Below, piece by piece: positions 46,251 through 60,516 of a stretch of DNA of 64,000 nt. This stretch comes from Bacteroidales bacterium (GTDB lineage Bacteria; Bacteroidota; Bacteroidia; Bacteroidales; GCA-2748055): contig JAWOHR010000091.1 in the NCBI GenBank assembly GCA_046485075.1, positions 19,668-83,667 on the forward strand. Direction: 5' to 3'. The translations under genes and the position numbers were made by a program. Below the pieces are notes generated by a model. That model was not told the origin of the DNA, did no database searches, and saw only the letters and a program-made list of their open reading frames with translations. Position 1 is the first letter of the stretch. Every line of letters starts with the position of its first letter.

Positions 46251-47315
46251 ATGATAACACTAGTTTTATATTTATTCCTTGCTTTATTTGTTTCATTCCT
46301 TTGTTCTATAATGGAATCTGTACTTCTTTCAACTCCACTGACTTTTTTGATTGTAAAGAAAAATAAAGGACACCACTGGGCAAAGTCTTTTATCGATTTG
46401 AAATTACATATAGATAAACCTTTATCGGCAATATTATCTTTAAACACTGTTGCTCATACCATTGGAGCCGCTGGTGTTGGAGCGCAAGCTGTAAAGGTAT
46501 TTGGCGAAGCATATTTCGGGATCGTATCTGCCATTCTAACCATTCTAATTTTAATATTTACAGAAATTATTCCAAAAACGATTGGGGCCAGATATTGGAA
46601 GGATTTAACAAGGGTTGCGTATTATACAATTAAATCAATGATTTTTATTACATATCCTTTAGTTTTATTGTCATCTGTAATAACCAAAGTTTTTTCAAAA
46701 CAAAATAATGAACAAACTACCAGTAGAGAGGAAATTGCAGCTTTGGCGAGCATAGGTATGGATGAAGGTTTGTTTTCGGACAAGGAGAATAAAATAATTC
46801 AAAATATACTTAAACTGAAAAATGTTAAAGTAACCGAGATTATGACTCCAAGAGTTGTGGTGGCCGTAGCTGATGAGAATTTGACTTTAAATGACTTTCT
46901 AAAAAACAAGGATTTCTTGAAATTTTCAAGAATTCCAATTTACTCGGGGAACGATGAAAACATTACCGGGTATGTGTTCAGACAGAAAATATTCGAAAAT
47001 TTAGCTGAAAACAACAATCATCTGAAACTAAAAGAAATAAAACGGGAGATTGTAATTGTTCCGGACACAATGGTGTTGTTCTCGTTATGGGAAAAACTAT
47101 TAGAAAAAAAGGAGCATATAGCACTGATAGTTGACGAATATGGTGGATTAGACGGGATTGTAACAATGGAAGATATCATTGAGACTCTTCTTGGATTGGA
47201 AATAGTTGACGAGAAAGATACAATAACCGATATGCAGAAATTTGCCCGAGAAAGATGGGAGACACGACAGGTAAAATATAATCTGATTGATAAATTGGAT
47301 ATGAATGACAAATAA
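46251..47315 (+). CDS. CNNM (DUF21) + CBS-pair membrane protein
   Basis: SFLCSIMES, AILSLNTVAHT.GA, EIIPK, IMTPR, FSRIP, VDEYGG..GIVTMEDIIE. Confidence 0.92.
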   Translation: MITLVLYLFLALFVSFLCSIMESVLLSTPLTFLIVKKNKGHHWAKSFIDLKLHIDKPLSAILSLNTVAHTIGAAGVGAQAVKVFGEAYFGIVSAILTILILIFTEIIPKTIGARYWKDLTRVAYYTIKSMIFITYPLVLLSSVITKVFSKQNNEQTTSREEIAALASIGMDEGLFSDKENKIIQNILKLKNVKVTEIMTPRVVVAVADENLTLNDFLKNKDFLKFSRIPIYSGNDENITGYVFRQKIFENLAENNNHLKLKEIKREIVIVPDTMVLFSLWEKLLEKKEHIALIVDEYGGLDGIVTMEDIIETLLGLEIVDEKDTITDMQKFARERWETRQVKYNLIDKLDMNDK

Positions 47316-47411
47316 TTGTCGCTAAATTATTTTGGATTCTGAAATACTATTTTCTTCGGAGACGGAATTTACACCACCCCCAGGCGATCAGTTTTCATTT
47401 CACTGGCAAAT

Positions 47412-47443
47412 CGGAATTTCTGAGCAAACGTCAGGCTAATATG
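47412..47443 (+). repeat. Degenerate right end of the attC-like repeat plus cassette left boundary
   Basis: CGGAATTTCTGAGCAAACG resembles CGGAACTTCGTTTAGCAAGGC (56266-56286). GTCAGGCTAATATG (47430-47443) is near-complementary to 48043-48057. Confidence 0.55.
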
Positions 47444-47472
47444 AAAAGAAGAAGATTTCTACCAAGAAGATG

Positions 47473-47503
47473 ATTAGTACTAATAAAGTACGTATATTTG
47501 TAC
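47473..47503 (+). promoter_or_regulatory. yefM-yoeB promoter/operator
   Basis: Perfect palindrome ATTAGTACTAAT (47473-47484); GTAC cores at 47477, 47488 and 47500 (11-12 bp apart); TATATTTG -7 element at 47493-47500. Confidence 0.75.
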
Positions 47504-47524
47504 TTAATAAAATACTTAAATATT

Positions 47525-47782
47525 ATGATTGCTGCGAATTATACCGAATTTAGGATAAAGCTAAAAAAGTATCTTGATAACGTTGAGGAGAATAATGAGA
47601 CCTTGATTATCAAAAGGGGTAAAGGAAAAGGGACAGTTTTGATTTCTTTGGATGAATATAATTCTATCATGGAAACAGTTCATCTGTTAAGCTCTAAAGC
47701 GAATGCAGATAGGCTTTATGAATCAATCAAGCAAATGAAAGAAGGAAAAGTATTTCAGAAGGATCTTATAGAGGAGAAATGA
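47525..47782 (+). CDS. yefM: Phd/YefM antitoxin
   Basis: MIAANYTEFR..LKKYLD.V......LIIKR...VLISLDEYNS..ET.HLL. ATG 47525 lies downstream of the promoter. Confidence 0.92.
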   Translation: MIAANYTEFRIKLKKYLDNVEENNETLIIKRGKGKGTVLISLDEYNSIMETVHLLSSKANADRLYESIKQMKEGKVFQKDLIEEK

Positions 47783-48039
47783 GAATAATATTTTCAAAAA
47801 ACTCATGGGAGGATTATACGTCATGGCTTGCGGAAGATAAGAGCATGTTGAAAAAAATAAATGAGCTGATCAAAGATATTCAAAGAACCCCATTTGAAGG
47901 AAAAGGTAAACCTGAGCCGTTAAAATATGATTTGGCAGGGTTTTGGTCACGGAGAATTAATAGAGAACATAGATTGGTTTATCAGGTTATAGATAACGAA
48001 ATCTTAATCTATAGCTGCAAATACCATTATGATAAGTAA
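47779..48039 (+). CDS. yoeB: Txe/YoeB toxin
   Basis: WEDY..W, GKGKPEPLK, WSRRINREHRLVY, YHY; ATGA overlap with the antitoxin. Confidence 0.95.
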   Translation: MRIIFSKNSWEDYTSWLAEDKSMLKKINELIKDIQRTPFEGKGKPEPLKYDLAGFWSRRINREHRLVYQVIDNEILIYSCKYHYDK

Positions 48040-48042
48040 GAA

Positions 48043-48155
48043 CATACTAAGCCTGACAGCTAGACCAAATTGCTTAACTTACAGCTAAAAGTAATTTTTG
48101 GTCCCACCCTTACGGGCTTCACAGTCTGCTCGGGCAAGCACGGCAGTCTCCGCTC
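48043..48155 (+). repeat. attC-like intergenic repeat, copy A (left and middle parts; right end missing)
   Basis: ...GCCTGAC AGCTAGACCAAATTGCTTAACTTACA...GTAATTTTTGGTCCCACCCTTACGGGCTTCACAGTCTGCTCGGGCAAGCACGGCAGTCTCCGC aligns with copies at 56113 and 57250. Confidence 0.8.
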
Positions 48156-48181
48156 ACTTCTCATGCCCTTCTTTCCACTAA

Positions 48182-50272
48182 CTACCAGCTTGCGTTTTGA
48201 AGTACATTCCCTGAACTCAGGTCTTCAAACTCATTCACTGACTCGAAATCGCTATTAATGCTCCCCAGGTTTGCACCAATGGCTATGCCGTAACCTGCAC
48301 CATGCGCTATTCTTGAGCGGGTGACATTGAGTTTCGATACGACGTTTTCACCTACATATAAGTTTGCAGTCGGAACGCATGACTGGTCAATTTTTCCCGC
48401 ATATTCAATGACGGTATTATCAAGGATATTATGATCGCTGTTGGACTGAAAATGAATTCCATTCCAGTAACCTTTTGTTTCGGAAAGTCCCGTAAAAACA
48501 ATTTTCAACTCATCTGTTCCCTGGGCATTCAGATAGCCGTTACCGTTGATTTTGATTCCTTTCCCGTCGGCAAATTTCAATACCGCCCCTGGCAACAGCT
48601 TTAATCCGGATTGTATGCCCAGGTTTTCACTTACCAGGTATGTTGCCCCAAAATTCAATTTAGGCCAGACCGATTCCTCGTGGTTGGTTCGTAATAAAAC
48701 CGAAGCAATTATTTCAATTCCATTGTGCCCGTTGCCAATGAATTCCATGGCAACCATATCGTTGGCTTTCCATACTTCATTAGCAGGTAATGCCATTGCC
48801 GCTTTGGTATTGTAACCAAACTTATTGAACGAACAGGCTGTTAAACCGGCCTTATTTTCAACATATAGCCCATATCCTCCGCTCCTTCCGATCTTTGAAT
48901 TGTTAATGCTGAGTTTTGCCTTACGCTCACCATCCAGTATGATCGCAGCATTTTGTTCAAAGCCATCTATGGGTTGACTACCGGCACCATATATCTCAAC
49001 ATACTTCAATTCATTATTTTCATTAGCGGACTGAATGCTAATACCTTTCCAGTATCCGGTTTCATTTGGTTCAGCTCCGTGGAACTTTATGGGATCAGCT
49101 CCGGTACCCTGGGCGATGATATAACCATTGTACCCGACAACAAATTCTGCTCCGGCATCAAATAAAAAATGAGTCCCGTGCAGAATCCTCAACCCACTTG
49201 ATACATGCACTTTGCCCATAATACGGTACGGCACTGTTTGAGCGGGAGTGTGATTGTCAATGGCCCGCGACCAAAATATTTCTTCCAGCCCGTATACATT
49301 GTCCCCCAGTACATCAATCATATTTACTTCATTATCGAAAATGTAGCCATTCATGGTATTGATTTGTGATGCGGGAATCAGGGCCGGACGGTGGTTGTTT
49401 ATCAGGAAAACATCAGAGGTACTAACATTTAAACTGGTGGCTGATTCAACTACAAGACCATAAGCCTTACTATACTGAAGGGTTGATGTCGAAAGCGTCA
49501 GCTTTGCATGTGATTCACTATCGAGCGCAAGATTGGCTGCGTAATCGATTCCGATAGCAGTATTACTTCCCCCGTATTCGATGATCACATATTTAAGGAG
49601 ATTCAGTTCGCTGGGCGAATTAATGATCAACCCCTTCCAGTACCCGGGTGTTTTTTCCTTACCGGTGAAAATCACTTCCTGTTCAACCCAACCTTCGGCA
49701 CGAATGATTCCCTGAGATTCAAGATACATGGCTTTATCGGCTTCAAAGGCGATGGTCACCGAGGGTCCTATCGTAAGTAATCCTGTCACATGGACATCTT
49801 CAGTGATCATATAATCAGGAATTGTGGGATCATCAATCAGGTTTGTAAGGATCCTGTCTTCCTGAATATCCTGGCTGATAATGACCGTTTCATTATCCGG
49901 AGCATTCGTTTCCCCGTTTACCTTAATGTTGATATCATCGGTATCAGAAAAAAAATTGTTTTGTATTTTCAACTCAACTACATAAATTCCTGCTCTATCT
50001 GCAGTGAACGTTGGCGAAACAGTGGTTGCATCTGTCAAAGTAGCAGTACTGTTCTCTGGTTTACTTTTGATGTTCCAGAGATACTGTAATGCCTTATCAT
50101 TCTCATCTTTGGAGTTGGACCCATCGAGAACAAGCACTTGATTTATTATTACTTGCTGGTCATTTCCTGCGTTGGCTTCCAATGTGTTAATTGGAGGATT
50201 TTCTATTACTTCCTCTTCACATGAAGTGAATAGTAATGAAACTGCGAACAATACGATTAATGCTTTTTTCAT
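48182..50272 (-). CDS. Lipoprotein with PKD/Ig-like domain and three long beta-helix-like repeats
   Basis: MKKALIVLFAVSLLFTSC lipobox; ANAGNDQ..LDGSNS..W PKD-like domain; repeats centred on GYWKG/GYWKG/GYWNG. Confidence 0.8.
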   Translation of the reverse strand: MKKALIVLFAVSLLFTSCEEEVIENPPINTLEANAGNDQQVIINQVLVLDGSNSKDENDKALQYLWNIKSKPENSTATLTDATTVSPTFTADRAGIYVVELKIQNNFFSDTDDINIKVNGETNAPDNETVIISQDIQEDRILTNLIDDPTIPDYMITEDVHVTGLLTIGPSVTIAFEADKAMYLESQGIIRAEGWVEQEVIFTGKEKTPGYWKGLIINSPSELNLLKYVIIEYGGSNTAIGIDYAANLALDSESHAKLTLSTSTLQYSKAYGLVVESATSLNVSTSDVFLINNHRPALIPASQINTMNGYIFDNEVNMIDVLGDNVYGLEEIFWSRAIDNHTPAQTVPYRIMGKVHVSSGLRILHGTHFLFDAGAEFVVGYNGYIIAQGTGADPIKFHGAEPNETGYWKGISIQSANENNELKYVEIYGAGSQPIDGFEQNAAIILDGERKAKLSINNSKIGRSGGYGLYVENKAGLTACSFNKFGYNTKAAMALPANEVWKANDMVAMEFIGNGHNGIEIIASVLLRTNHEESVWPKLNFGATYLVSENLGIQSGLKLLPGAVLKFADGKGIKINGNGYLNAQGTDELKIVFTGLSETKGYWNGIHFQSNSDHNILDNTVIEYAGKIDQSCVPTANLYVGENVVSKLNVTRSRIAHGAGYGIAIGANLGSINSDFESVNEFEDLSSGNVLQNASW

Positions 50273-50385
50273 GTCTTTTGTATGATTATATTTTATGATA
50301 CAAAATTGACACGAATCAGTAGGATGTGAAATACCTGATCGACAGGAATTCAACTACCAAGTAGACGGTATTTTTTGACTGGAAA

Positions 50386-51039
50386 CTAATTAATCAGTTT
50401 ATGCTTTAGTGCAAACTTGTAGATACCAAGTGAATTTCTCACGCCTATTTTCTTCATTAAATTTTTACGGTGGGTTTCTACCGTTTTAATACTAATGAAT
50501 AATTTTTCGGCAATTTCAACATTTGAATTTTCTAAAGCGACCATCTTTAAAATTTCAGTTTCTCTTTCTGTGAGGATATCCAATTCGCTTATTTCTTCTT
50601 TGACTTTCTTTTTCTTTAGAAATAGACTTTGTGCCAACTGGGTGCTTATTGACTGGCTCAAATAATTCTCTCCCTTCATTACCTGAAGTATGGCTAATTC
50701 GAGTTCTGCTTTACCGGTATTTTTCAGGATATAACCGGAAGCTCCTGCCTCCAGCATCGCCTGAATCGACTCCAATTCATTGTCCATGGTCAGTCCAAGT
50801 ACTTTTACCGAAGGATAAAGTTCCCGGATCATTCTGGTGGCTTCCAGTCCATCTATATCGGGCATGTGAAGATCTACAATCACAAGATCTCCTTTTATTG
50901 TTTTCAGTTTTTCCAATAGCTGCGCTCCATTATTCACGGAAGCAACTATTTCTACATAAGCGATCTGCGAAAGCAAAGCGTGCAATCCGTCCAAAAACAT
51001 CTGGTGATCATCGGCCAATAAGATTTTAATTTTGTCCAT
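50386..51039 (-). CDS. NarL/LuxR-family response regulator
   Basis: LADDH, VDLHMP, GASGYILK, LTERE...IAEKLFIS.KTVETHRKN. Confidence 0.95.
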   Translation of the reverse strand: MDKIKILLADDHQMFLDGLHALLSQIAYVEIVASVNNGAQLLEKLKTIKGDLVIVDLHMPDIDGLEATRMIRELYPSVKVLGLTMDNELESIQAMLEAGASGYILKNTGKAELELAILQVMKGENYLSQSISTQLAQSLFLKKKKVKEEISELDILTERETEILKMVALENSNVEIAEKLFISIKTVETHRKNLMKKIGVRNSLGIYKFALKHKLIN

Positions 51040-51042
51040 CCG

Positions 51043-54000
51043 TCAGGCATTTAAAGGAATAGTAACGTTATAAATGGTTCCCCGGTTCAAAGATGAATCA
51101 ACATCAAAATAACCATTTAGAAGTTTCACCCTTGAGTGGATATTTTTTAATCCCAAACCCGAATTTACCACGCTTGTATTAAATCCGACTCCATCATCTT
51201 CAACCATTAAGTTAATACCATCGTCGGTTTGGGTAATACTCATGTCAATTTGTTTTGCTGAAGCATGTTTGATGATATTATGAATGATTTCCTGAATAAT
51301 ACGGTACAATGTAAATTTAATGGCTTCTGATAAATTGTCAGCTAAGCCATAAGTCTGAAAATGATACTTTAATCCGTTTCTCTTTAACAAATTTTCAGCA
51401 ATTTCAGTTAGACTTTTGCTTTTAAGATCCGGAGGCATAAGGTTGTGTGAAATTGTCCTGATTTCATCAATACTTTCATCAAGCAACTGTAAAGGTTTTT
51501 GTATGAGTTGATCAGTTGACTCAATCCCAGATAAATTTAATTTGACTAAAGCCAGCATTTGCCCCACACTGTCATGCAATTCCTCGGCAATCCGTTTCCT
51601 TTCTTTCTCCTGAGATTCGATTACCGCCTCCATTTTTTTCTGTTCCTGAATTTGTAATTCCTGATTCAGCCGGTTCAAATTTTCATTATAAATGGCATTT
51701 GCCAAAGCAATGGAAGTGTACTCGATCAATAATGAAAACAAATCATTTTTTTCAGTATTCTCTGAATTCATGTCTTCAAGATAAATCAGACCTACTGTTT
51801 CCAAACCAGATAAAATGGGGTAACAAAATACATTGGCAGGATTGGATTGAATAAAATATGGATCATCGGCAAAATGGACTATCTTTCTCACATCTTCCAG
51901 CATGACCTTCTCGGCCTTATTGATTGCGAAATTTAAAACTTTGCAGGGCAGTTGGGTTTCAATCTCACTTAGGGGTATATTCTCCAAACCAGACCATTCA
52001 GGCCTGTTCGTTAAAAGCACTTGCCAGATGTTGTTCTGCTGGATCAATATAACACCAACCCGGGCTTTGCTTTGTTCCACCAGGTTTGATAATAAAAATT
52101 CGCCAAGTTTTGCCAAATTCATTTTCTGACTTAGGGCTGTTTTATTAATGATGCTTCTAACCCATTGATAATCTGGATATAATGATGGTCTGACAGAAAG
52201 ACTACTTATAATTATAAATGGATATTTTTGTTTCATCCACTCAACCTTGGCATCGGCTCCCCATTTTGAATACGATTTGAAGGCATCTTTCAGATAAATG
52301 CCGGCCAAATGATGCCTGCTTTTGCTGAGATAATATTCTCCGGCCAATTCGGCGGCGATGGCAGCGTGGTGAATAAATTTCTGTGCCTTCGCTTCCTGAA
52401 TAGCCTGATCGAATAACATTGTGGCGATTTCAAATTCGCCTTTGCATTTGGCTATTTCAGCTTCAATTAATAATGCTTTGTGAAAATAGTTGCCCGATCC
52501 AAAGTCCGAGAGCCTCCGGAATTCTTCCAGCTTTGGAGTAACCTTGTCCAAAACCTCTTTCAATAACAGAGGGTTCCTGTAAGCCGATTGTAACAGGCTT
52601 AAGCTAAAAAATAAATAGTGCTCAAGTTTAATCTGGAAACCACGATAAACGTTTTCAAGGTTCTCGCAGGCATACCCGGCATCCAAAGCCCTGGAATAAT
52701 TACCTGATAAGTAATTAAGCTTTTGTAAGGCAAGTTTTAAATGATACCTGCCACTGAGGTTATACTCTGCCTCTTTGATTAAATCTTCTGAGAAATCAAA
52801 TTTGCTTTCCTGAAAACCCGGTTTAATCCCGGCAAGGTAAGCGCTCAGGTCGGAATCACTGCTGCTGATAAAGAAAATATGTTGATTTTGGCTTTCTAAC
52901 CTTTTGGAATATGAAATATGCTCCTTGAGATTTTTCCCTCGGTAAATATTTAATAACCTGATATTTGTGGCGCAAAATGAGGCGTAATGATGATCTCCTG
53001 CTTCTCTCGCCAACTGAACCGATTCCTTCAACTTTTTCACACATACTTTATAGTGGTTTTCCCAGGCAAAAAAGTTTAGAGTTGCAATATAATAGACGAT
53101 ATGTGCATAACTGTTAAATGGAGGTTGCCCGATCATCCGGAGTGAAATTTTCCCCAATAGAAATGCCATTGATACATATGATCTGCTAACAGATGCAGAT
53201 AAGAAACTAACTGAAAATAAAACCGGAGTCATGGGTGTGAGTCCATTTGTAAAACTCATCAATAAAAATTTAATTCCCATGAAAAGATTTTTCCTTACAT
53301 CCATGTAATAGACAAAAGTCATGGAATTCATTACCAGCTTCATCAAATCCTGATATTCCTGGTCGGGATTTATCAAAAGATTAAAATTGGTATCTTCAGT
53401 TATACCGGCAGTAAACTGGTTGATTTCGTATGAATCGGCTGCGGCTTGCCGCAATATCTCATCCGGCCGATCAGGAAAGACAATACCAAAATCATTCAAC
53501 ACCGATTCCAGGCTATTGAGCCCATCCACTAAGATTTCCTGTACATCATTTTTGTAAATCAATGCTGAACAAACTCTTATCTTGATCAGGGTTGCTAAAA
53601 TTTTCTGATGCCTGTTTATTTTTAATTTCAAAACTTCGTTCGAGTAAAATAATGCCTGATCGAATTTTTGCATCAGGAACATGGTTTCGGCATATCCAAA
53701 CTGAATGAAAAATTCCAGATCATCATTGCTTATTTCCCTATTTTCAAACAAATCCATCAGTTTTTGATCGCTGACAACTATTCCAGCAGGCGGATGGTAT
53801 TTTACCAATTGATCAGCAAACGAATAATACTTCCAGGCCCTTTCAAATGCAGATTTTTTAATGGCTAACCGTGCTGCCTGAATATTTAAAAGAATATGTT
53901 TGGGAGCAAATCCACATTTTGTTTTTTCCGTTTCCCAGCCGGCATTGAGATGATTGATAGCCTGAAAAAAACCATTTTGATCGTAATTATCCAACCCTGA

Positions 54001-55233
54001 CAAGATGATACGACCGATTTTCTGATGAAGAACGAATTTCTGATGATCGGTTATTAATTCATTGGCAGCTGTAAATATATTGTCGTGTGCAAAAATATAA
54101 TTGGAGTCTTCTTTTATCAGTAACCCATCATTTGTCATTTTCAAAAGAATCAGGTCAATTTCTTCTGAAGACAACCTAATGATTTGTTTTAACAAATCTG
54201 CTTCAAAATAGAACCCAATACAGGAAGCCGCAGAAAATAGATGCATTTGATGAGGAGGCAACATTTTAAGTTGTTGCTGGACGAAATTGACCGAACTTTT
54301 TGCCCGATTGAACCTTGGAAGTTTTTCCCAGAAGAAGGAATCGTGGTTGGTTTCATTTTTAATTAAGTGCTCATTTTCAATAACTTTAATTATTTCTTTG
54401 ACTTTAAACGGATTGCCTTCACTTTCATATTCCATATATTTATTAAATGCATCTGACTCTTGTTGGTTGAACTTCCATTGGGTAGGAATAAGTAATTTAA
54501 TATATTGTGGTTCCAGTGGATTTAGGGAATAGGTAAGCGTTCTACCCGGGTTTTGTTTTTTTAAATTGTCGATTTTTAATTGTAAATCGGGTTTGTCTTC
54601 AAGAGGACGGTAAGCACCGATAATGATTAAATCAGTTACTGCATTACGGTTTATAAGTTCCTCAATTAAAGTCCATGAAGCATTGTCTGCCCATTGCAAA
54701 TCATCCAGAAAAAGTATGATTTGATATCCGGTGCGGGTGATTGATTTTAGAAATTTATTTAAAAAATAGTAGAATTTTGACTTAATCTGATGTGCCTCTG
54801 TTTTATCAGGTGGCTGAATATTGAACTGATTTCTGCCAAAGAAAGGTTGCAGTTCTTCAAAAACAGAAGTTACGGTACCAATATTATTTTGCAGAGTTGA
54901 GACAGCATTTTCTTTTAGTTTGTTAAGTTCTTCTTCCGATAAAACAAGAATCTGATTCATCCATCCCTTCATCGCCTCTTTCATCGCCTGGTATGGAATC
55001 TTCCCAGGCTGATTGCTGTATTTCCCATATATTTTGAAGCACTTCAGCTTTTTATAATCGAATAAAACCTTCTGGATTAAGGTTGTTTTACCAATACCTG
55101 CTTGTCCCTCAATAAGTAGCAAAGAGGTATCTGAATTTTTAAATTCAGCCATCGAATTTAAAAGAAACACCAATTCCTCTTCACGTCCAATGAAATAATG
55201 ATCCATAAAGGGCTTTTCCGTAAGAGTTGTCAT
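51043..55233 (-). CDS. Soluble AAA/STAND ATPase - helical repeat - GAF-like - HisKA_3/HATPase histidine kinase
   Basis: FIGREEE, GQAGIGKT, LFLDDLQWAD, GNPF, FAHD; ERKRIAEELHDSVGQ, EIIHNIIKHA, EDDGVGF, GLGLKN. Confidence 0.87.
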   Translation of the reverse strand: MTTLTEKPFMDHYFIGREEELVFLLNSMAEFKNSDTSLLLIEGQAGIGKTTLIQKVLFDYKKLKCFKIYGKYSNQPGKIPYQAMKEAMKGWMNQILVLSEEELNKLKENAVSTLQNNIGTVTSVFEELQPFFGRNQFNIQPPDKTEAHQIKSKFYYFLNKFLKSITRTGYQIILFLDDLQWADNASWTLIEELINRNAVTDLIIIGAYRPLEDKPDLQLKIDNLKKQNPGRTLTYSLNPLEPQYIKLLIPTQWKFNQQESDAFNKYMEYESEGNPFKVKEIIKVIENEHLIKNETNHDSFFWEKLPRFNRAKSSVNFVQQQLKMLPPHQMHLFSAASCIGFYFEADLLKQIIRLSSEEIDLILLKMTNDGLLIKEDSNYIFAHDNIFTAANELITDHQKFVLHQKIGRIILSGLDNYDQNGFFQAINHLNAGWETEKTKCGFAPKHILLNIQAARLAIKKSAFERAWKYYSFADQLVKYHPPAGIVVSDQKLMDLFENREISNDDLEFFIQFGYAETMFLMQKFDQALFYSNEVLKLKINRHQKILATLIKIRVCSALIYKNDVQEILVDGLNSLESVLNDFGIVFPDRPDEILRQAAADSYEINQFTAGITEDTNFNLLINPDQEYQDLMKLVMNSMTFVYYMDVRKNLFMGIKFLLMSFTNGLTPMTPVLFSVSFLSASVSRSYVSMAFLLGKISLRMIGQPPFNSYAHIVYYIATLNFFAWENHYKVCVKKLKESVQLAREAGDHHYASFCATNIRLLNIYRGKNLKEHISYSKRLESQNQHIFFISSSDSDLSAYLAGIKPGFQESKFDFSEDLIKEAEYNLSGRYHLKLALQKLNYLSGNYSRALDAGYACENLENVYRGFQIKLEHYLFFSLSLLQSAYRNPLLLKEVLDKVTPKLEEFRRLSDFGSGNYFHKALLIEAEIAKCKGEFEIATMLFDQAIQEAKAQKFIHHAAIAAELAGEYYLSKSRHHLAGIYLKDAFKSYSKWGADAKVEWMKQKYPFIIISSLSVRPSLYPDYQWVRSIINKTALSQKMNLAKLGEFLLSNLVEQSKARVGVILIQQNNIWQVLLTNRPEWSGLENIPLSEIETQLPCKVLNFAINKAEKVMLEDVRKIVHFADDPYFIQSNPANVFCYPILSGLETVGLIYLEDMNSENTEKNDLFSLLIEYTSIALANAIYNENLNRLNQELQIQEQKKMEAVIESQEKERKRIAEELHDSVGQMLALVKLNLSGIESTDQLIQKPLQLLDESIDEIRTISHNLMPPDLKSKSLTEIAENLLKRNGLKYHFQTYGLADNLSEAIKFTLYRIIQEIIHNIIKHASAKQIDMSITQTDDGINLMVEDDGVGFNTSVVNSGLGLKNIHSRVKLLNGYFDVDSSLNRGTIYNVTIPLNA

Positions 55234-55325
55234 TCTCTTGTTAAAGAATTGAAGATAACTAAGATAACGCTATATATTTTCCTTTGTTCAATAATATTTT
55301 CTTTCCCTGAAATGAAAGACAAGAG

Positions 55326-55392
55326 TAATTAACACCAGATATACAATTATTGATCAACCTGGTATAATTTCGTTTAGCGAGGCATTGGCTAC
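55326..55392 (+). repeat. Compact or degenerate attC-like copy and left boundary of the second TA cassette
   Basis: Clear right end AATTTCGTTTAGCGAGGC ATTGGCTAC (55366-55392); weaker left end TAATTAAC-ACCA-GATATAC-AATT. Confidence 0.7.
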
Positions 55393-55450
55393 AATACCAG
55401 AAGGAAATTATGCAATTAGATAATAATTGCGTAATGGAAAGGAAAAATCG

Positions 55451-55458
55451 TAAATTTG
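55451..55458 (+). promoter_or_regulatory. -7 promoter element of the TA pair
   Basis: TAAATTTG (TAnnTTTG) 16 nt before the antitoxin ATG. Confidence 0.6.
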
Positions 55459-55474
55459 GAAAAATGAAGAAAAT

Positions 55475-55657
55475 ATGTTAACCAAGGATAAGATAAAGAA
55501 GTCGATAGATTCTTTGCCTGATAATTTAACTGTTGATCAGGTTATAGATAGAATTATCATGCTGGATAAGATTGAACAGGGGCTAAAGGATGTAGAGTCT
55601 GGCAATGTATTTACTACTGAAGAAGCTAAAGCCAAGTTAATTAAATGGTTAAAGTAA
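55475..55657 (+). CDS. Putative type II antitoxin
   Basis: 60 aa (IDSLPD...KIEQGLKDVESG...EEAK) overlapping the start of a RelE/ParE gene. Confidence 0.8.
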   Translation: MLTKDKIKKSIDSLPDNLTVDQVIDRIIMLDKIEQGLKDVESGNVFTTEEAKAKLIKWLK

Positions 55658-55953
55658 TTTGGACAGCCAGATCTTTAAAAGACCTTGAAGAAATTGGAGA
55701 ATATATCTCAAAGGATTCTCCAAAATATGCAAAACTTACCCTTGAGAAGCTTATTGAAAATACAAAGTTAATAGAGCATAATCTGTTAATTGGTCGAATT
55801 GTCCCAGAGGTAAAGCAAAGAGATTTTCGTGAGATTTTAACTGGAAATTATAGAATCATTTATCAGACAATGAAAGGGGAGTATGCCTACATATTAACCA
55901 TTCATCATACTTCAAGATTGCTATCGAACAATCCAACTTTTAAGAGAAAATAG
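55645..55953 (+). CDS. RelE/ParE-family toxin
   Basis: VIWTARSLKDLEEIGEYISKDSP..A, GRIVPE, REI..GNYRIIY, I.H..R. Confidence 0.9.
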   Translation: MVKVIWTARSLKDLEEIGEYISKDSPKYAKLTLEKLIENTKLIEHNLLIGRIVPEVKQRDFREILTGNYRIIYQTMKGEYAYILTIHHTSRLLSNNPTFKRK

Positions 55954-56112
55954 AGCAACAGTAGTCAACATCGTTTGTAAGCCATTGCTGGTATCGGTTT
56001 ACGGTAGCTATCACTCTTGGTTACCTTGTGGAAGCTTAACCACCCATTCAGTCGACTAAAATCTCTTCGTGCTCCGCATTCCCGGTATTTTAGGAATGTG
56101 ACTGAATGACTC

Positions 56113-56299
56113 GCTAAACAAAATTGTGTAACTTACATATCGTACCCCGACTGATGGTCGGCATTGAGCAAAACGCAACTGAACAAAATGCTAAACGTAA
56201 TTTGGTCGCGCCCTTGCGGGCTTTACAGTCTGCCCGAGCAAGCTCAGCAGCCTCCGCCCTAAGTACGGAACTTCGTTTAGCAAGGCATTATTTTCAATT
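56113..56299 (+). repeat. attC-like intergenic repeat, copy B (longest, about 175 bp)
   Basis: GCTAAACAAAATT ... AACTTCGTTTAGC (inverted ends) AAGGC ATTATTTTCAATT; internal hairpins CCGACTGATGGTCGG and CTGCCCGAGCAAGCTCAGCAG. Confidence 0.85.
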
Positions 56300-56325
56300 G
56301 TAAAAGAAATCAGACACACCTAAAC

Positions 56326-56703
56326 ATGAATAAAAAAAGACAGGAAAGTGAACCCCCATTGGCGACATCAGAATGGGGCTGGAGATATCATCATCTAGGA
56401 ATACCCACAGATAAGGCTATTGATGGAGAGAAATATATTCCACAATTTAAGTTTTATGTTTCCGGTTTTAATACAAGTCCATACGGAATTGAATGGATGC
56501 GGTTTGACAAGGATAGTCCCATTCATGATCTTATTAAAATGGTTCCTCATATAGCCTTTGAAGTCGATGATCTGGATTTGGAACTTGCCAGATTTAACTT
56601 CAATATTCTAACTCCACCTAATTCTCCTGGCGAGGGGATAATGGTTGCAATGATTGAGCATAACGGAGCCCCGATTGAATTAATTGAATTTGAGAAAAAT
56701 TGA
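56326..56703 (+). CDS. VOC/glyoxalase-superfamily protein
   Basis: YHHLGIPT, PHIAFEVDDL, GAPIELIEF. Confidence 0.82.
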   Translation: MNKKRQESEPPLATSEWGWRYHHLGIPTDKAIDGEKYIPQFKFYVSGFNTSPYGIEWMRFDKDSPIHDLIKMVPHIAFEVDDLDLELARFNFNILTPPNSPGEGIMVAMIEHNGAPIELIEFEKN

Positions 56704-56788
56704 AATAACAACTGAACACAGCAGCTAAACTAAATTGCTTAACTTACATATCGTAACCCGACCGATGGTCGGCATTGAGCATAACGCA
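56698..56788 (+). repeat. attC-like repeat, copy C (left half)
   Basis: AATTGAAATAAC ... AGCAGCTAAACTAAATTGCTTAACTTACATATCGTAACCCGACCGATGGTCGGCATTGAGCATAACGCA; nearly identical to 56113-56177. Confidence 0.85.
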
Positions 56789-56800
56789 TTAAAACCAAAA

Positions 56801-57238
56801 ATGAAACCATTATTACCTATACTACCTATAATTCTCTTCTTCATTGGATGCGGCCATTCAAAAAGCAAGGAAGAAATTAAGAATGAAATATTCCAGACTG
56901 AGAAGGCTTTTGAGAAGATGACATTAGAAAAGGGCATCACAGAAGCCTTTTACTATTTTGCAGATGAAAATGCAGTCATAAAAAGGGAGAATGATACACT
57001 TATTTCAGGTAAAGAGAATATCAGAATCTATTATGAGAAAAAAGACATAATAGATGCAACAGTTAATTGGACACCAGACTTTATCGATGTTTCTAAATCT
57101 GGTGATCTTGGATATACTTATGGTAAATATATTTGGAAGATCAAAGGTATTGATGGTATTATCGTGGAATATAAGGGTGTCTTTCACACTGTGTGGAAAA
57201 GGCAGGAGGATAATGGTTGGAAGTATGTTTGGGATTAA
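56801..57238 (+). CDS. NTF2-like/DUF4440 lipoprotein
   Basis: LFFIGC lipobox; TEKAF, AFYYFADENA, WTPDFIDVS.SGDLGYTYG, TVWKRQ.DG.WK. ATG 56801. Confidence 0.82.
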   Translation: MKPLLPILPIILFFIGCGHSKSKEEIKNEIFQTEKAFEKMTLEKGITEAFYYFADENAVIKRENDTLISGKENIRIYYEKKDIIDATVNWTPDFIDVSKSGDLGYTYGKYIWKIKGIDGIIVEYKGVFHTVWKRQEDNGWKYVWD

Positions 57239-57249
57239 TAACTATTTAT

Positions 57250-57361
57250 CTGCCGTTAACAAACTAAATTGCTTAACATTCAGGCTTTAAGTCTGCCTGA
57301 GCAAGCTCGGCAGCCTCCGCCCTCAGTCCAGAACTTCGCTTAGCGAGGCATTAGAGGTAAG
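57250..57361 (+). repeat. attC-like repeat, copy D (internally shortened, both ends present)
   Basis: CTGCCGTTAAC AAACTAAATTGCTTAAC...GTCTGCCTGAGCAAGCTCGGCAGCCTCCGCCCTCAGTCCAGAACTTCGCTTAGCGAGGC ATTAGAGGTAAG. Confidence 0.85.
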
Positions 57362-57378
57362 CAAAAAAATCAATAACA

Positions 57379-58167
57379 ATGAAAACTTTTAAATTCAGAC
57401 TACTATTTGTCAGCATTTTATTTTCCTCAAAAATATTATACAGTCAAACTGATAATAAATTATTTTTGGGAGAAAAGAACTTGATCCATTCCGAAATACT
57501 TGTTCTGCATATATGCATACTTAAATCGTAGTGAACTGTTTAAAGGATTTATTTCTATGGATCCTGCATTAAACTGGGATAATTATATATGCGAACAAAT
57601 GCTAAGATCATTACCCATTAATGCACAGAATTTTAACAACAGGTTGTATATTTCATCGGCTCACAACGCACCTGAGGGGAAACGCGATAAAGGACTACTT
57701 AGAATGTCCCAACTGTCATTTACAAAAGAACTAAAAAAGAAAGGTGTAAATAACAACAAATTTGAGCTGTTTGAAAAAGAAATACACTTGACTGTTGCTT
57801 ATCAAAGTTTACATTCTGGATTAATGTTTATTTTTCCCGATTATTATATTTTTAAAAATCCTCAGTTTACGCCAGAAATTCCATTTATCGAAGAGTTTTA
57901 TAGAAATGTTTCGGATTCGTATGGAATGAATTTTGCTCCACCTGAATATTTAATTGAGATGATAGGAAAGTACTATCTTTTTGAGAATTATTTAAGTTAA
58001 ATACTGTCAATTATCCTAATTCATACAAAGCTTTTGAATTTTTGGCTAAAGCCTACATAGCATCTGGTGATCTTGATAATGCAATTTTGAATTATCAAGA
58101 ATCTTTGAATTTAAATTCAAGTAATAATAATATTAAAAAAGTTTTATCTGAACTTGAATTAAAATAA
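57379..58167 (+). pseudogene. Fragmented secreted alpha/beta-hydrolase (esterase) with TPR tail
   Basis: Three pieces in different frames: MKTFKFRLLFVSILFSSKILYSQ...IHSEIL; FCIYAYL...ISMDPALNW...EIHLTV (ORF 57500-58000); FKLNTVNYPNSYKAFEFLAKAY...NYQESLNLN (stop 58167). No G-x-S-x-G remains. Confidence 0.78.
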
Positions 58168-58386
58168 TCCTTTGAATGAGAGTACCAGAATGCCCTTAAA
58201 GTGTTCCTCATGCACCTTTTGTTGCAGGGAGCTTAGCTGATTCATGGCAAGTTTTCAAATTCTGACTGTATTCTTGATGTTGATTCAGCTTATGTAAATG
58301 CTCAAACCAGTTCGCCACACATATGGCATGCCAGTGAGTTTTTTTGTATTTATTGGAAATGAAAAAATAACTACGCACGTGAACAC

Positions 58387-59151
58387 TTAATCCTTTTTCT
58401 GGTTTTCGATGGCTTTGCGAAGTGCAATTACTTCTGATTTCAGTTCTTCAATTTCCTTGGAGCCGGCAATCGGGGCGTCTTTATCTTCGGCGTCACGACC
58501 GATGAAATAAGTGGCAAAAGTCGCAGTGACGTAGCCGAAAATGCTATATCCGAAAACAGCAATTAGAAAACCTAACACGCGACCTTCAGGTGTCATCGGA
58601 TTAAATTCGTTACTTGCCGTGATCACCCGCATTGCTGTCCACCAAAGCGCAAGCCCGTAACTGGTAAAGCCGGGGTTCGGGTTTTCCAGAGCATACATTC
58701 CGGCAGCTCCTGCAAAGGTTACAATCAGAGTAATGCCCATCACATAGCCAAAGGCACGGCGCTGCATGGTTTTGCCTAAGCTTCGCATGCCTCTGTTGAG
58801 TGATGATATAATCCGCACAAGCCTGATACTCCGAAGGCCGCGTAAAAGCCTAACAAACCGGAAAACCTGAAATATACGTAATGCTGGAATAAACAATGAA
58901 ATGGCGGTAAGCCAATTTTTTTTCAGGAAAGGCAGTTTTTCTGGGGCGAGTGCAAACTTGATCAGGAAATCAATAATAAATATTCCCCAAATTCCAATGG
59001 TAACAAATTCGAGGGTCTTGTTGATTCCCCAGATTAGCTCAGCTACGAGCAGGACAAGCCATACGAATCCCAGGAAGATCATAGGTCCTTCAAGAATTTG
59101 CTCTACCTTTCTGAGCAGCCTTTTTCGTTCACTTTTAATGTCGCGTTTCAT
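58387..59151 (-). CDS. Ion transporter / voltage-gated channel-like membrane protein
   Basis: Multiple TM helices, Arg-rich S4-like RIFQVFRFVRLLRGLRSIRLVR, pore helix ALWW, PMTPEGR. ATG 59151 preferred. Confidence 0.85.
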   Translation of the reverse strand: MKRDIKSERKRLLRKVEQILEGPMIFLGFVWLVLLVAELIWGINKTLEFVTIGIWGIFIIDFLIKFALAPEKLPFLKKNWLTAISLFIPALRIFQVFRFVRLLRGLRSIRLVRIISSLNRGMRSLGKTMQRRAFGYVMGITLIVTFAGAAGMYALENPNPGFTSYGLALWWTAMRVITASNEFNPMTPEGRVLGFLIAVFGYSIFGYVTATFATYFIGRDAEDKDAPIAGSKEIEELKSEVIALRKAIENQKKD

Positions 59152-59289
59152 ACTTTGGGATCTCCGAATATAAGAAAAACTCCTGCAAATTTTGAACACC
59201 GGCAATTGATTTCAAATGAATGTCCAAGCAAAGTAATCTGCTGTTCCAGCTTACGGACAACACCTAAAAAAAGCCGGTGTAAACTGATA

Positions 59290-59321
59290 GGAACTTCATT
59301 TAGCGAGGTATTAGCGGCAAG
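59290..59321 (+). repeat. attC-like repeat, copy E (right end only)
   Basis: GGAACTTCATTTAGCGAGGT ATTAGCGGCAAG. Confidence 0.75.
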
Positions 59322-59411
59322 CACATTCAAACCTACAAAAGGATTTTCATACTGAATTCCAAGCTTTTATCGTAAATTAACGCTATTAAATATACTTTAA
59401 ATGCATCAAGT

Positions 59412-60152
59412 ATGAAAGTACTTATCATCTACGCGCATCCAAATCCTATGTCATTTACAAAAGCTGTCCTTGACAATTTTGTAAAAGGTCTTCAGGAAGT
59501 GGGACATCAATATGAAGTAGTCGATTTGTATAAAATTAAGTTCAACCCTGTATTGCAGGATAAGGATTCTGCTTTTTTTGTGGATAAAGATATGCCTGAA
59601 TGGCTTTTCAAGCAAATGGACATGAGGAAGATGATAATCGAGCTTGCGGGTGGGCCTGTAAGAAGGTTGATTGCAAAATTGTACATTAAGAACAAGAGTG
59701 ATGATGATCTGCGTGAGCTTATTAGTTCTCAGAAGCCCAGGGATGTGTTAACACAGCAAAAGAAAGTAGCAGAAGCGGATGTGCTCGTATTCATAACACA
59801 GGTGATCTGGATGCACTTTCCCGCGATAATGAAGGGGTGGATAGAACGAGTTTTTTCTTATGGATTTGCATACAGATTGAATGAAAGCGGATGGAATGGT
59901 GATCCGGATGGCAGAATTCCTTTATTGAAAATTAAGAAAGCTATAATAATGCATCCTACTTTCTTCAACGAAATAGTTTACAGGGAAAAGGGATTCAGAG
60001 AGTCCATGGAAAAAATTATTGATAACTGGAGCCTGAAATACCCCGGAATTCAAACTGTCGACCATATCTACTTCCATTCTATATTGGCAGTGGATAATGA
60101 CACACGTAAAAAGTATCTTGAAATAGCATATTTAAAAGGTAAAAACTTATAA
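59412..60152 (+). CDS. NAD(P)H-dependent oxidoreductase (flavodoxin-2 / quinone reductase-like)
   Basis: IIYAHP..SF, DLY..FNPVL, AD.LVF..W..FPAIMKGWIERVF..GFAY. Confidence 0.9.
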   Translation: MKVLIIYAHPNPMSFTKAVLDNFVKGLQEVGHQYEVVDLYKIKFNPVLQDKDSAFFVDKDMPEWLFKQMDMRKMIIELAGGPVRRLIAKLYIKNKSDDDLRELISSQKPRDVLTQQKKVAEADVLVFITQVIWMHFPAIMKGWIERVFSYGFAYRLNESGWNGDPDGRIPLLKIKKAIIMHPTFFNEIVYREKGFRESMEKIIDNWSLKYPGIQTVDHIYFHSILAVDNDTRKKYLEIAYLKGKNL

Positions 60153-60156
60153 GATT

Positions 60157-60408
60157 ATGAATACTCTTAATTTTACAGACATTAACTTTTATGCAGTATT
60201 TGTTGCATGGATAATTCACATTGTTATAGGATTGTTATGGTTTCGGCCTAAGCTGTTTGGAAATGAATGGTCAAAGCTGACAGCAAAAGAACTTAACCCC
60301 GAAAAAAAATGGATTATTCCAGGTTTTGCAGGTCATCTGCCAATGTTTCCCCTCCTAGCCTTTGAATACGATTTAGGAGAGCTGATGTTAAAAGTATTAA
60401 AGATGTAA
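60157..60408 (+). pseudogene. Truncated DUF1761-like membrane protein
   Basis: INFYAVFVAW...IGLLWF.PKLFG..W matches the DUF1761 N-terminus, but the ORF is only 83 aa and appears to lose similarity after about residue 60. Confidence 0.55.
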
Positions 60409-60462
60409 GCGTAATTATTGTAGCATAAAAATGAATATCATGATGCACCATTATTGGGAATT

Positions 60463-60498
60463 GCTAATCAAAATTGCTTAACTTACCTATCGAGTCGG
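60463..60498 (+). repeat. attC-like repeat, copy F (left end only)
   Basis: GCTAATCAAAATTGCTTAACTTACCTATCG..GTCGG. Confidence 0.75.
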
Positions 60499-60516
60499 TT
60501 CTTTAAAAGGGAAATC

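Follow-up and report, generated by a model that had tools for sequence, protein, structure and literature searches.

A 13-kb cluster of small accessory genes with repeat modules between them, at positions 47430-60500 of a 64,000-nucleotide stretch of the Bacteroidales contig JAWOHR010000091.1 (the window, numbered from its first letter), is read here, with a probability of about 85%, as a decaying, integrase-less cluster of integron-type gene cassettes in a Bacteroidota-like chromosome. It is flanked by a CNNM/CBS gene (46251-47315) on one side and by a lipoprotein/VIT1/DnaJ group on the other. attC-site clusters that have no integron integrase (CALINs) are defined for IntegronFinder, as given in PMC9024848, as two or more attC sites clustered without an integron integrase; the window holds three full sites (55963-56052, 56178-56293 and 57254-57356) with no recombinase open reading frame (ORF) among them, together with incomplete sites at 48058-48165, 55366-55384, 56723-56788, 59292-59310 and 60463-60492. 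An initial annotation, made from the letters alone, had held that three gene units of the cluster, yefM-yoeB, an antitoxin-relE pair (relBE) and a VOC-like gene, have complementary ends peculiar to each unit, and that they are cassettes, each starting with what is left of its own R' box. Crossover positions, homologues and covariation of the ends support this view. That the start of an integrated cassette fits the R'' box behind its own gene is established integron biology, whereas the system hosting it here is unusual. Throughout, G000 denotes the genome under study, other G labels the genomes of relatives, C labels contigs and L labels extracted loci.

The site type that closes a non-coding cassette in the middle of the cluster, here called M-type, follows the order R'' ACTGAAC, 5-nt spacer, L'' GCTAAAC, structured middle, L' GTTTAGC, 5-nt spacer and R' A/TT (slashes mark the crossover, here between 56287 and 56288), a geometry that agrees with the attC features set out in PMC5027507, where attC is an imperfect palindrome of 57-141 bp with inverse core sites RYYYAAC ... 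GTTRRRY. Alignment of 26 of the 31 distinct copies, from 14 genomes, yielded a consensus fold in which all 26 copies retain a 9-bp L stem and eight inner pairs are compensated; among the five copies omitted, four have a different left half (window 57243-57357, L062, L049, L066) and one, from G059, is out of register. Conservation extends up to ...GCA, is followed by TT in 25/26 copies and then gives way to variable sequence, a switch repeated in four G059 copies, and the M-type crossover was placed at ...GCA/TT because conservation switches off there. This position lies exactly before the left arms of the relBE and VOC pairs, and the first R' base is A in 24 of the 26 copies. Both the relE site (AGTCAAC...ATTCAGT, 55963-56052, 90 nt) and the M-type site (ACTGAAC...ATTATTT, 56178-56293, 116 nt) are imperfect palindromes with inverse core sites in the length range of attC, and an L box set off by an unpaired spacer, as expected at 5-6 nt, is present in M-type sites (5 nt on both arms) and in the sites of genome G031 (3 and 6 nt). 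Read by eye, the stems contain mismatches, with no clear bulged G/T pattern of extrahelical bases.

The repeat modules occur at six loci only, namely this cluster, the neighbourhood of a broken IntI-like gene on C70 of the same genome and four other places, and because they are confined to those few loci they do not form a dispersed family of repeats. The conserved boxes that the X and hairpin modules contain (GCTAAAC, GCTTAAC) had been considered as true R'' boxes; this assignment was dropped because cassette starts do not complement them, and homology with G031 puts R'' immediately upstream of the X module. Lone X+hairpin modules were seen in G000 at C135:43145-43246, C85:43951-44033 and C144:7519-7587, one after a gene judged Fic-like by eye only, one after an unnamed gene and the third between an apparent tRNA gene and an ORF judged, again only by eye, to encode a nucleotidyltransferase; these may be remnants of further cassettes.

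All six arms that had been reported are present in the window. The yefM-yoeB pair (47430-47443 and 48043-48057; pair 1) shows 13 matches, one mismatch and one gap, the relBE pair (55384-55392 and 55961-55969; pair 2) matches at 7/9 positions, and the VOC pair (56288-56299 and 56698-56709; pair 3) has 11 matches and one gap, with the TGA stop at 56701-56703. Over 14 nt, each unit's start agrees more closely with its own end than with that of either other unit (8 vs 3-6, 9 vs 5-6 and 10 vs 5-7), so the pairs are unit-specific. When the 14-mer beginning at the crossover base was compared with the 60 nt around the stops of 4396 other ORFs, the score of yefM-yoeB (10) was reached in 0/4396, that of relBE (7) in 196/4396 and that of VOC (9) in 79/4396.

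Counted against the R'' boxes of the window, cassette starts fit their own box at 7/8 nt in the yefM-yoeB, relBE and non-coding cassettes, a fit also reached by 10 of 90 foreign pairs; across all cassettes of the window, three reach 7/8 nt, two reach 5/8 and for two no own R'' was found. The start of the non-coding cassette, TTCAGT, pairs 6/6 with its own R''. Joined in silico, the relBE site folds with lowest energy on its own start (-11.1 vs -6.9 to -8.8 kcal/mol, rank 1 of 7), and the non-coding cassette likewise ranks first of seven, by a margin of 0.2, whereas in the DUF4440 cassette the own start does not give the best fold. The left arm of the relBE unit directly follows an M-type stub (55366-55384), and its right arm is the R'' of a shortened attC resembling the sites of G031 (78-81% identical); elsewhere relBE was found only in near-identical metagenome contigs, which are not independent.

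G031, a genome from another family of the same order, extends these observations to arrays of textbook integron appearance. It carries a copy of yefM-yoeB that is 95% identical over 527 nt (C61) and a copy of the VOC cassette that is 91% identical over 433 nt (C40); both lie in arrays, which comprise nine homogeneous 127-130-nt sites within 8 kb on one contig and at least three on another. All its cassettes lying between two sites of one attC family were taken, chosen by site geometry alone; their first 14 nt match their own R'' context at a mean of 11.5/14 (10/10 cassettes), vs 6.8 for 90 foreign pairs, and the own-end sum was reached in 0/20000 permutations. In silico joining gave the own start the lowest fold energy in 7/8 cassettes. 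The junction folding suggested by the initial annotation thus favours the own start for relBE, narrowly for the non-coding cassette and for seven of the eight cassettes of G031. Stems in G031 reach about 8 nt past the 6-nt R' remainder, to about 14 nt, with recurrent mismatches at positions 9-10, and the arms first reported are 12-14 nt long because stems extend some 8 nt beyond that remainder. Cassette starts share NCAA at positions 7-10 (L023 and L021 of G031; L075, L082), as also seen in Flavobacteriaceae S0862 and Winogradskyella ursingii.

The same units, with the same limits, recur in other genomes: yefM-yoeB in G031, G018 and G017, VOC in G031 and the sediment contig X1, and the non-coding cassette as set out below. 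For yefM-yoeB, homology with G018:C4 begins exactly at G 47430, the DNA upstream being unrelated, and the left arm coincides in position with the beginning of the G031:C61 copy, itself preceded by the end of an attC. Its R'' GCCTGAC (48051-48057) was placed by alignment with the copies on G031:C12 and G017:C52, and its two R boxes depart from the usual AAC/GTT in a complementary manner (GAC/GTC). Homologues of yefM-yoeB have other ends that are again complementary (14/15 in G028, 12/13 in G031:C8 and a 10-nt core in G018), so the ends of the unit covary in the way the initial annotation had anticipated. An AAGTAC...GTAC palindrome is conserved upstream of yefM (window 47470-47500; homologues L013, L014, L016, L019, L020) and is probably the antitoxin operator, from which it would follow that the cassette carries its own promoter.

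The VOC cassette bears out its proposed left arm, which begins at an attC crossover, and corrects the right one, since homology with the two other copies, in G031 and X1, places the R'' at 56716-56722 rather than at 56698-56709. In both copies the cassette starts with G/TTGTGT, and both resemble the window between the same limits, 56293 and 56725; the sediment copy lacks 11 nt within the proposed right arm and carries a G031-type attC. In the window the R box is degraded, with start TTATTT and R'' ACACAGC, and the flank pairs at 7/8 nt. Five loci with distant VOC homologues (60-63% amino-acid identity) showed no attC and no flanking complementarity, the best scores being 7-10.

The non-coding cassette, for its part, has copies 85-92% identical in 22 of 49 genomes of the genus, this one counted, with the proviso that genomes of one genus are not independent. 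It stands in differing surroundings in G017, G007, G058, G054 and on C70, and in G059 it follows each gene cassette, four copies standing within 8 kb. Near its start the window copy has lost 18 nt. At L068 (G059:C25) and L069 (G058:C20) this cassette of 240-285 nt was seen to consist of a small hairpin, an X+hairpin module and an M-type attC; it may serve as a promoter or a docking site.

Several observations speak against the reading of the cluster as a cassette array, and the first of them would suit ends that match by chance, in AT-rich spacers of genes set apart by ordinary intergenic repeats resembling repetitive extragenic palindromes (REP). When the arms were left free (best local inverted match between 120 nt upstream of the gene and 72 nt around the stop), a score of at least 10 was reached by 574 of 2958 ordinary ORFs (19%) and of at least 9 by 1086 of 2958 (37%), the units themselves scoring 10, 9 or less, and 9 with the arms first reported; complementarity with free arms is therefore not unusual, because ordinary ORFs of the genome score alike. 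Even in the anchored comparison, pair 2 (4.5%) and pair 3 (1.8%) are each weak on their own. The idea that the ends are complementary beyond chance thus fails for free arms and holds once the left arm is anchored at the crossover. Chance is nevertheless a very improbable source of the whole pattern, given the anchored counts of 0, 196 and 79 among 4396 ORFs, the restriction of the repeats to six loci, one of them beside a recombinase gene, and the recurrence of the cassettes in other surroundings, where their limits fall as predicted.

Further points on the same side concern single cassettes. The start of the DUF4440 cassette fits its own R'' at only 5/8 nt, and for the cassettes that begin at 57351 and 59311 no complementary R'' was found downstream, the best matches being 9/14 nt in scattered places. 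The right arm originally given for VOC is off by 13 nt, and the VOC start matches the true R'' box at 3/6 nt, or 10/14 with its flank, a value that the displaced arm also attains. At 6/7 crossovers placed in the window the crossover base is A and not G; crossovers otherwise lie at the expected triplet, with the yefM cassette as the exception, starting with TC instead of the conserved TT. Upstream of 47430 neither attC nor attI was recognised, and a candidate attI relic in 47316-47445, compared with the spacers behind the recombinase gene of C70, G017, G059 and G054, was rejected, shuffled sequences having matched its score in 190-259 of 300 trials. The window contains no integrase, and the genome has no IntI above the TIGR02249 cut-off. 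The attC finder was home-made and crude, relying on AAC/GTT anchors, an L-box run and fold energy. Finally, no excision joint, circle or joint at any crossover was found in the contigs of four metagenome runs, where the evidence consists of assembled contigs and absent cover is uninformative; each of the 20 runs listed contains at most 0.15 of the stretch.

A different origin of the ends, in which each unit is a small non-autonomous transposon with terminal inverted repeats, draws on the 14-15-nt inverted ends of yefM-yoeB, which resemble such repeats. We consider it barely credible, in view of arms that differ between units and between homologues yet stay complementary, of left arms that abut the ends of attC sites and of a cluster devoid of transposase genes; no duplicated target bases were seen beside the arms, although no dedicated search was made.

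For the cassettes themselves, then, the following course would account for the ends. Each would consist of a gene and an imperfect-palindrome attC that folds as a single strand and would be cut by a tyrosine recombinase between the first base (G or A) and the TT of the R' box. A circle opened at this crossover and inserted would set down the last six R' bases, with the stem to about 14 nt, before the gene, and the R'' partner would stay behind the gene, giving each unit complementary ends of its own. What the sequences show are the sites, the crossover position, the recurrence of the cassettes in other contexts and the covariation of their ends, whereas movement through circles and the enzyme responsible for it are inferred.

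With regard to that enzyme, we tentatively propose, at somewhat short of even odds, that the array is a worn member of an integron-like capture system spread across the Bacteroidota, whose platform recombinase would be a short IntI/Xer-like enzyme devoid of the IntI-specific domain, its gene pointing into the array and followed in this genus by the reiterated 240-285-nt non-coding cassette, while classical IntI genes stand alone. In G000 itself, C70:1-3100 (L001, L060) carries a broken short IntI-like gene, behind which come the non-coding cassette and a pair of cassettes that look intact and start with TTAGCGGC and TTAGCTGT, each a perfect complement of the cassette's own R'' box. The best IntI match of the genome lies there in three pieces of 90, 58 and 37 bits, one of them with a TAA stop, and an adjacent intI with the IntI-specific domain, as in a complete integron, was not found in G000. 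Six other genomes of the genus share with C70 a recombinase gene that precedes the first or the non-coding cassettes and points to them. The non-coding cassette lies some 80-225 nt past it on G000:C70 (broken gene), G018:C4, G046:C174, G054:C9 and G059:C25, and gene cassettes intervene on G017:C6 and G057:C5, with none in between on C70. A short recombinase placed 5' of an attC array and co-oriented with it is a feature of the relatives and not of the window.

The intact short recombinase has 284 aa and scores 205 bits with the integron-integrase model and 207 with the XerA model, both below the cut-offs. Compared with the IntI of the genus, it is without a 30-aa segment holding the ALER motif and without a 12-aa segment, and the IntI-specific segment is lacking in all 11 further array-linked homologues aligned. 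A homologue search returned 80 loci, of which 38 from other Bacteroidota were used: oriented attC-like sites numbered 17 downstream on the same strand and one on the other strand (149 kb), vs one upstream on the same strand and three on the other (214 kb). At least one site stands downstream on the same strand at 10/38 loci, vs 1, 1 and 2 in the other positions. An earlier count, loose and blind to orientation, had given a weak excess (16 vs 11 sites in 121 vs 170 kb) and was replaced by this one. At 18/38 loci the contig stops no more than about 2 kb past the short recombinase gene but extends far upstream, as expected if assemblies break in repeated attC arrays. A full-text literature search brought up no account of a recombinase lacking the IntI-specific domain at the head of attC arrays.

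The arrays could also be of the same type with a classical IntI moving the cassettes in trans, the short recombinase being a mere neighbour. IntI genes above the TIGR02249 cut-off (406-427 bits) were found in six of 11 genomes examined (G011, G018, G007, G057, G046, G059); the IntI-specific domain is called a defining feature in PMC9668308, which cites a paper declaring it, in its title, necessary for activity; and G058 has 13 matches to the non-coding cassette with neither recombinase at E<=1e-25. We hold this explanation to be on the unlikely side, though a serious one, in that the three IntI loci inspected, G018:C1 (L037), G011:C150 (L039) and G007:C101 (L038), at 415-427 bits, have no array beside them, that G000, G017 and G031, although they contain arrays or cassettes, lack an IntI above the cut-off, and that oriented attC-like sites accumulate behind the short recombinase (17, vs 1, 1 and 3 in the control positions of the 38 loci). 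One of the three inspected IntI genes adjoins tRNA genes.

The linked recombinase scores like XerA, XerC and XerD (207 bits with NF040815, 183 bits with TIGR02224) and is without the IntI-specific insert, which would also suit a Xer-type reaction at double-stranded sites, such as moves the dif modules of Acinetobacter plasmids, in place of folded single strands. This is improbable to our judgement, the sites being imperfect palindromes of 84-135 nt whose structure is kept through eight compensated pairs and whose cassette-specific stems reach 14 nt, with co-oriented cassettes and a crossover at G or A before TT, as in attC.

Returning to the array of the window as a worn member of the proposed system, its cassettes were once mobile and are now probably fixed in G000. 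It looks frozen because the recombinase on C70 is broken, because the R boxes of the yoeB (GAC/GTC) and VOC (AGC) cassettes are mutated, because the attC sites of these two are truncated or replaced and because a 7.2-kb block splits one site. The yoeB attC has no right end; the block comes next, and the missing end follows as a 19-nt stub, about 11 nt of the split site being lost. The block carries, on the minus strand, genes for a PKD-domain protein, a LuxR-type response regulator and a 1396-aa AAA/TPR/HisKA_3 kinase, contains no transposase genes and, across 41 relatives, matches at the DNA level over short lengths only; it may have arisen by insertion, inversion or capture. The other stub (59292-59310) also comes immediately after the region upstream of a minus-strand gene (ion channel, 58387-59205), and the double occurrence suggests a specific process. 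The VOC cassette, 3 nt past its R'', runs into a piece of the non-coding cassette. Toxin-antitoxin pairs hold cassette arrays in place, a role that the two toxin-antitoxin cassettes present here would fit.

The features of the cluster are collected in Table 1. Pfam assigns yefM-yoeB to PhdYeFM_antitox (PF02604, 1.2e-18) and YoeB_toxin (PF06769, 9.4e-40) and the relBE toxin to ParE_toxin (PF05016, 1.4e-16), and a search with the 60-aa partner of this ParE/RelE-family toxin gave no Pfam match; as adjacent small genes fitting family profiles, YefM-YoeB and ParE/RelE qualify as type II toxin-antitoxin systems. The VOC label comes from automatic Atlas names only, the nearest clusters being called 'VOC family protein', and the protein had no Pfam match at E<=0.5 and no solved relative at E<=1. 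The DUF4440 match is weak (2.6e-4), whereas the flavodoxin-like gene matches Flavodoxin_2 at 7.4e-36. The region of the latter (59412-60215) reached a summed contig depth of up to about 430 in one freshwater-sediment run, and in sediment contigs its likeness breaks at 59390 and 60215-60224 and not at an attC crossover, so that this gene is perhaps not a separate cassette.

Table 1. Features of the cassette cluster between 47430 and 60500 of the window
Feature	Position	Strand	Parts, boxes and crossover	Basis
Left arm of yefM-yoeB cassette	47430-47443	+	crossover G/TC between 47430 and 47431	
Toxin-antitoxin pair yefM-yoeB	47498-48039	+	yefM 47498/47525-47782; yoeB 47779-48039	Pfam; 95% to G031:C61
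Right arm of pair 1	48043-48057	+	R'' GCCTGAC 48051-48057	aligns with R'' of G031:C12 and G017:C52
Body of yoeB attC	48058-48165	+	X module, left and central M-type parts; no right end	repeat families D2, D3; genome blastn
7.2-kb block between two parts of an M-type attC	48166-55365	-	three genes	ORFs, Pfam
M-type attC right-end stub	55366-55384	+	L' GTTTAGC 55372-55378, spacer GAGGC, crossover base A 55384	repeat family D1; 26-copy alignment
relBE-type cassette	55385-56046	+	antitoxin-like ORF 55475-55657; ParE/RelE-family toxin 55645-55953	
attC of relBE cassette	55963-56046	+	R'' AGTCAAC 55963-55969	78-81% identity to G031 array sites
Non-coding cassette	56047-56287	+	M-type attC 56178-56287 at its end; R'' ACTGAAC 56178-56184; L'' 56190-56196; crossover base A 56287	copies in genus, consensus fold
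VOC-like cassette	56288-56788	+	gene 56326-56703; R'' by homology ACACAGC 56716-56722	91% to G031:C40
X+hairpin module in place of the VOC cassette's own attC	56723-56788			
DUF4440-like lipoprotein cassette	56789-57350	+	gene 56801-57238; hybrid X+M attC 57254-57350, R'' CGTTAAC	
Eroded stretch	57351-59310		broken plus-strand ORFs; minus-strand ion-channel gene 58387-59205; second M-type right-end stub 59292-59310	ORFs, Pfam
Flavodoxin-like gene and cluster end	59311-60500	+	gene 59412-60152; small ORF; last X module 60463-60492	repeat family D2 (X module)

Set beside known systems, the cluster resembles sedentary chromosomal integrons and CALINs in its co-oriented small genes, its R/L-box palindromes with an unpaired spacer and a crossover before TT, its cassette starts that complement their own R'', its toxin-antitoxin cassettes, which the Vibrio cholerae superintegron also carries, and its decay after loss of the integrase. 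Unlike them, it has a crossover base that is mostly A and not G, stems continuing about 8 nt past the R box with mismatches at positions 9-10, a reiterated non-coding cassette and no IntI linked to arrays. The arrays of the relatives recall a classical integron platform, being headed by a tyrosine recombinase gene with new cassettes right behind it, and differ from that platform, with its attI, its Pc and an intI encoding the IntI-specific domain, in a recombinase without the 30-aa ALER segment and the 12-aa segment. A recombinase pointing towards the array recalls the 'inverted integrase' orientation of the integrons of Treponema and Chlorobi. In having gene modules bounded by sites of a Xer-family recombinase, the system is also like the modules of Acinetobacter plasmids, where short double-stranded dif-like sites alternate in orientation, whereas the sites described here are long folded palindromes with cassette-specific stems.

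As summarised in PMC9024848, only lone integrases were at first reported from Bacteroidetes, later a few complete integrons, and complete integrons are rare there; the present array adds a cluster bearing toxin-antitoxin cassettes to a phylum with few complete integrons (PMC9024848). It illustrates that the classical footprint of mobile cassettes is legible in raw sequence, and that a single anchored test together with a few homologues can verify it. Besides, it draws on a cassette pool common to different families (91-95% identity), in arrays headed by a recombinase without the domain that defines integron integrases, and thereby makes testable the question of whether the IntI-specific domain is needed for recombination of folded attC sites. 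If the short enzyme does move the cassettes, recombination at folded hairpin sites would need no IntI-specific domain, and many arrays filed as integrase-less would have an integrase that has been overlooked.

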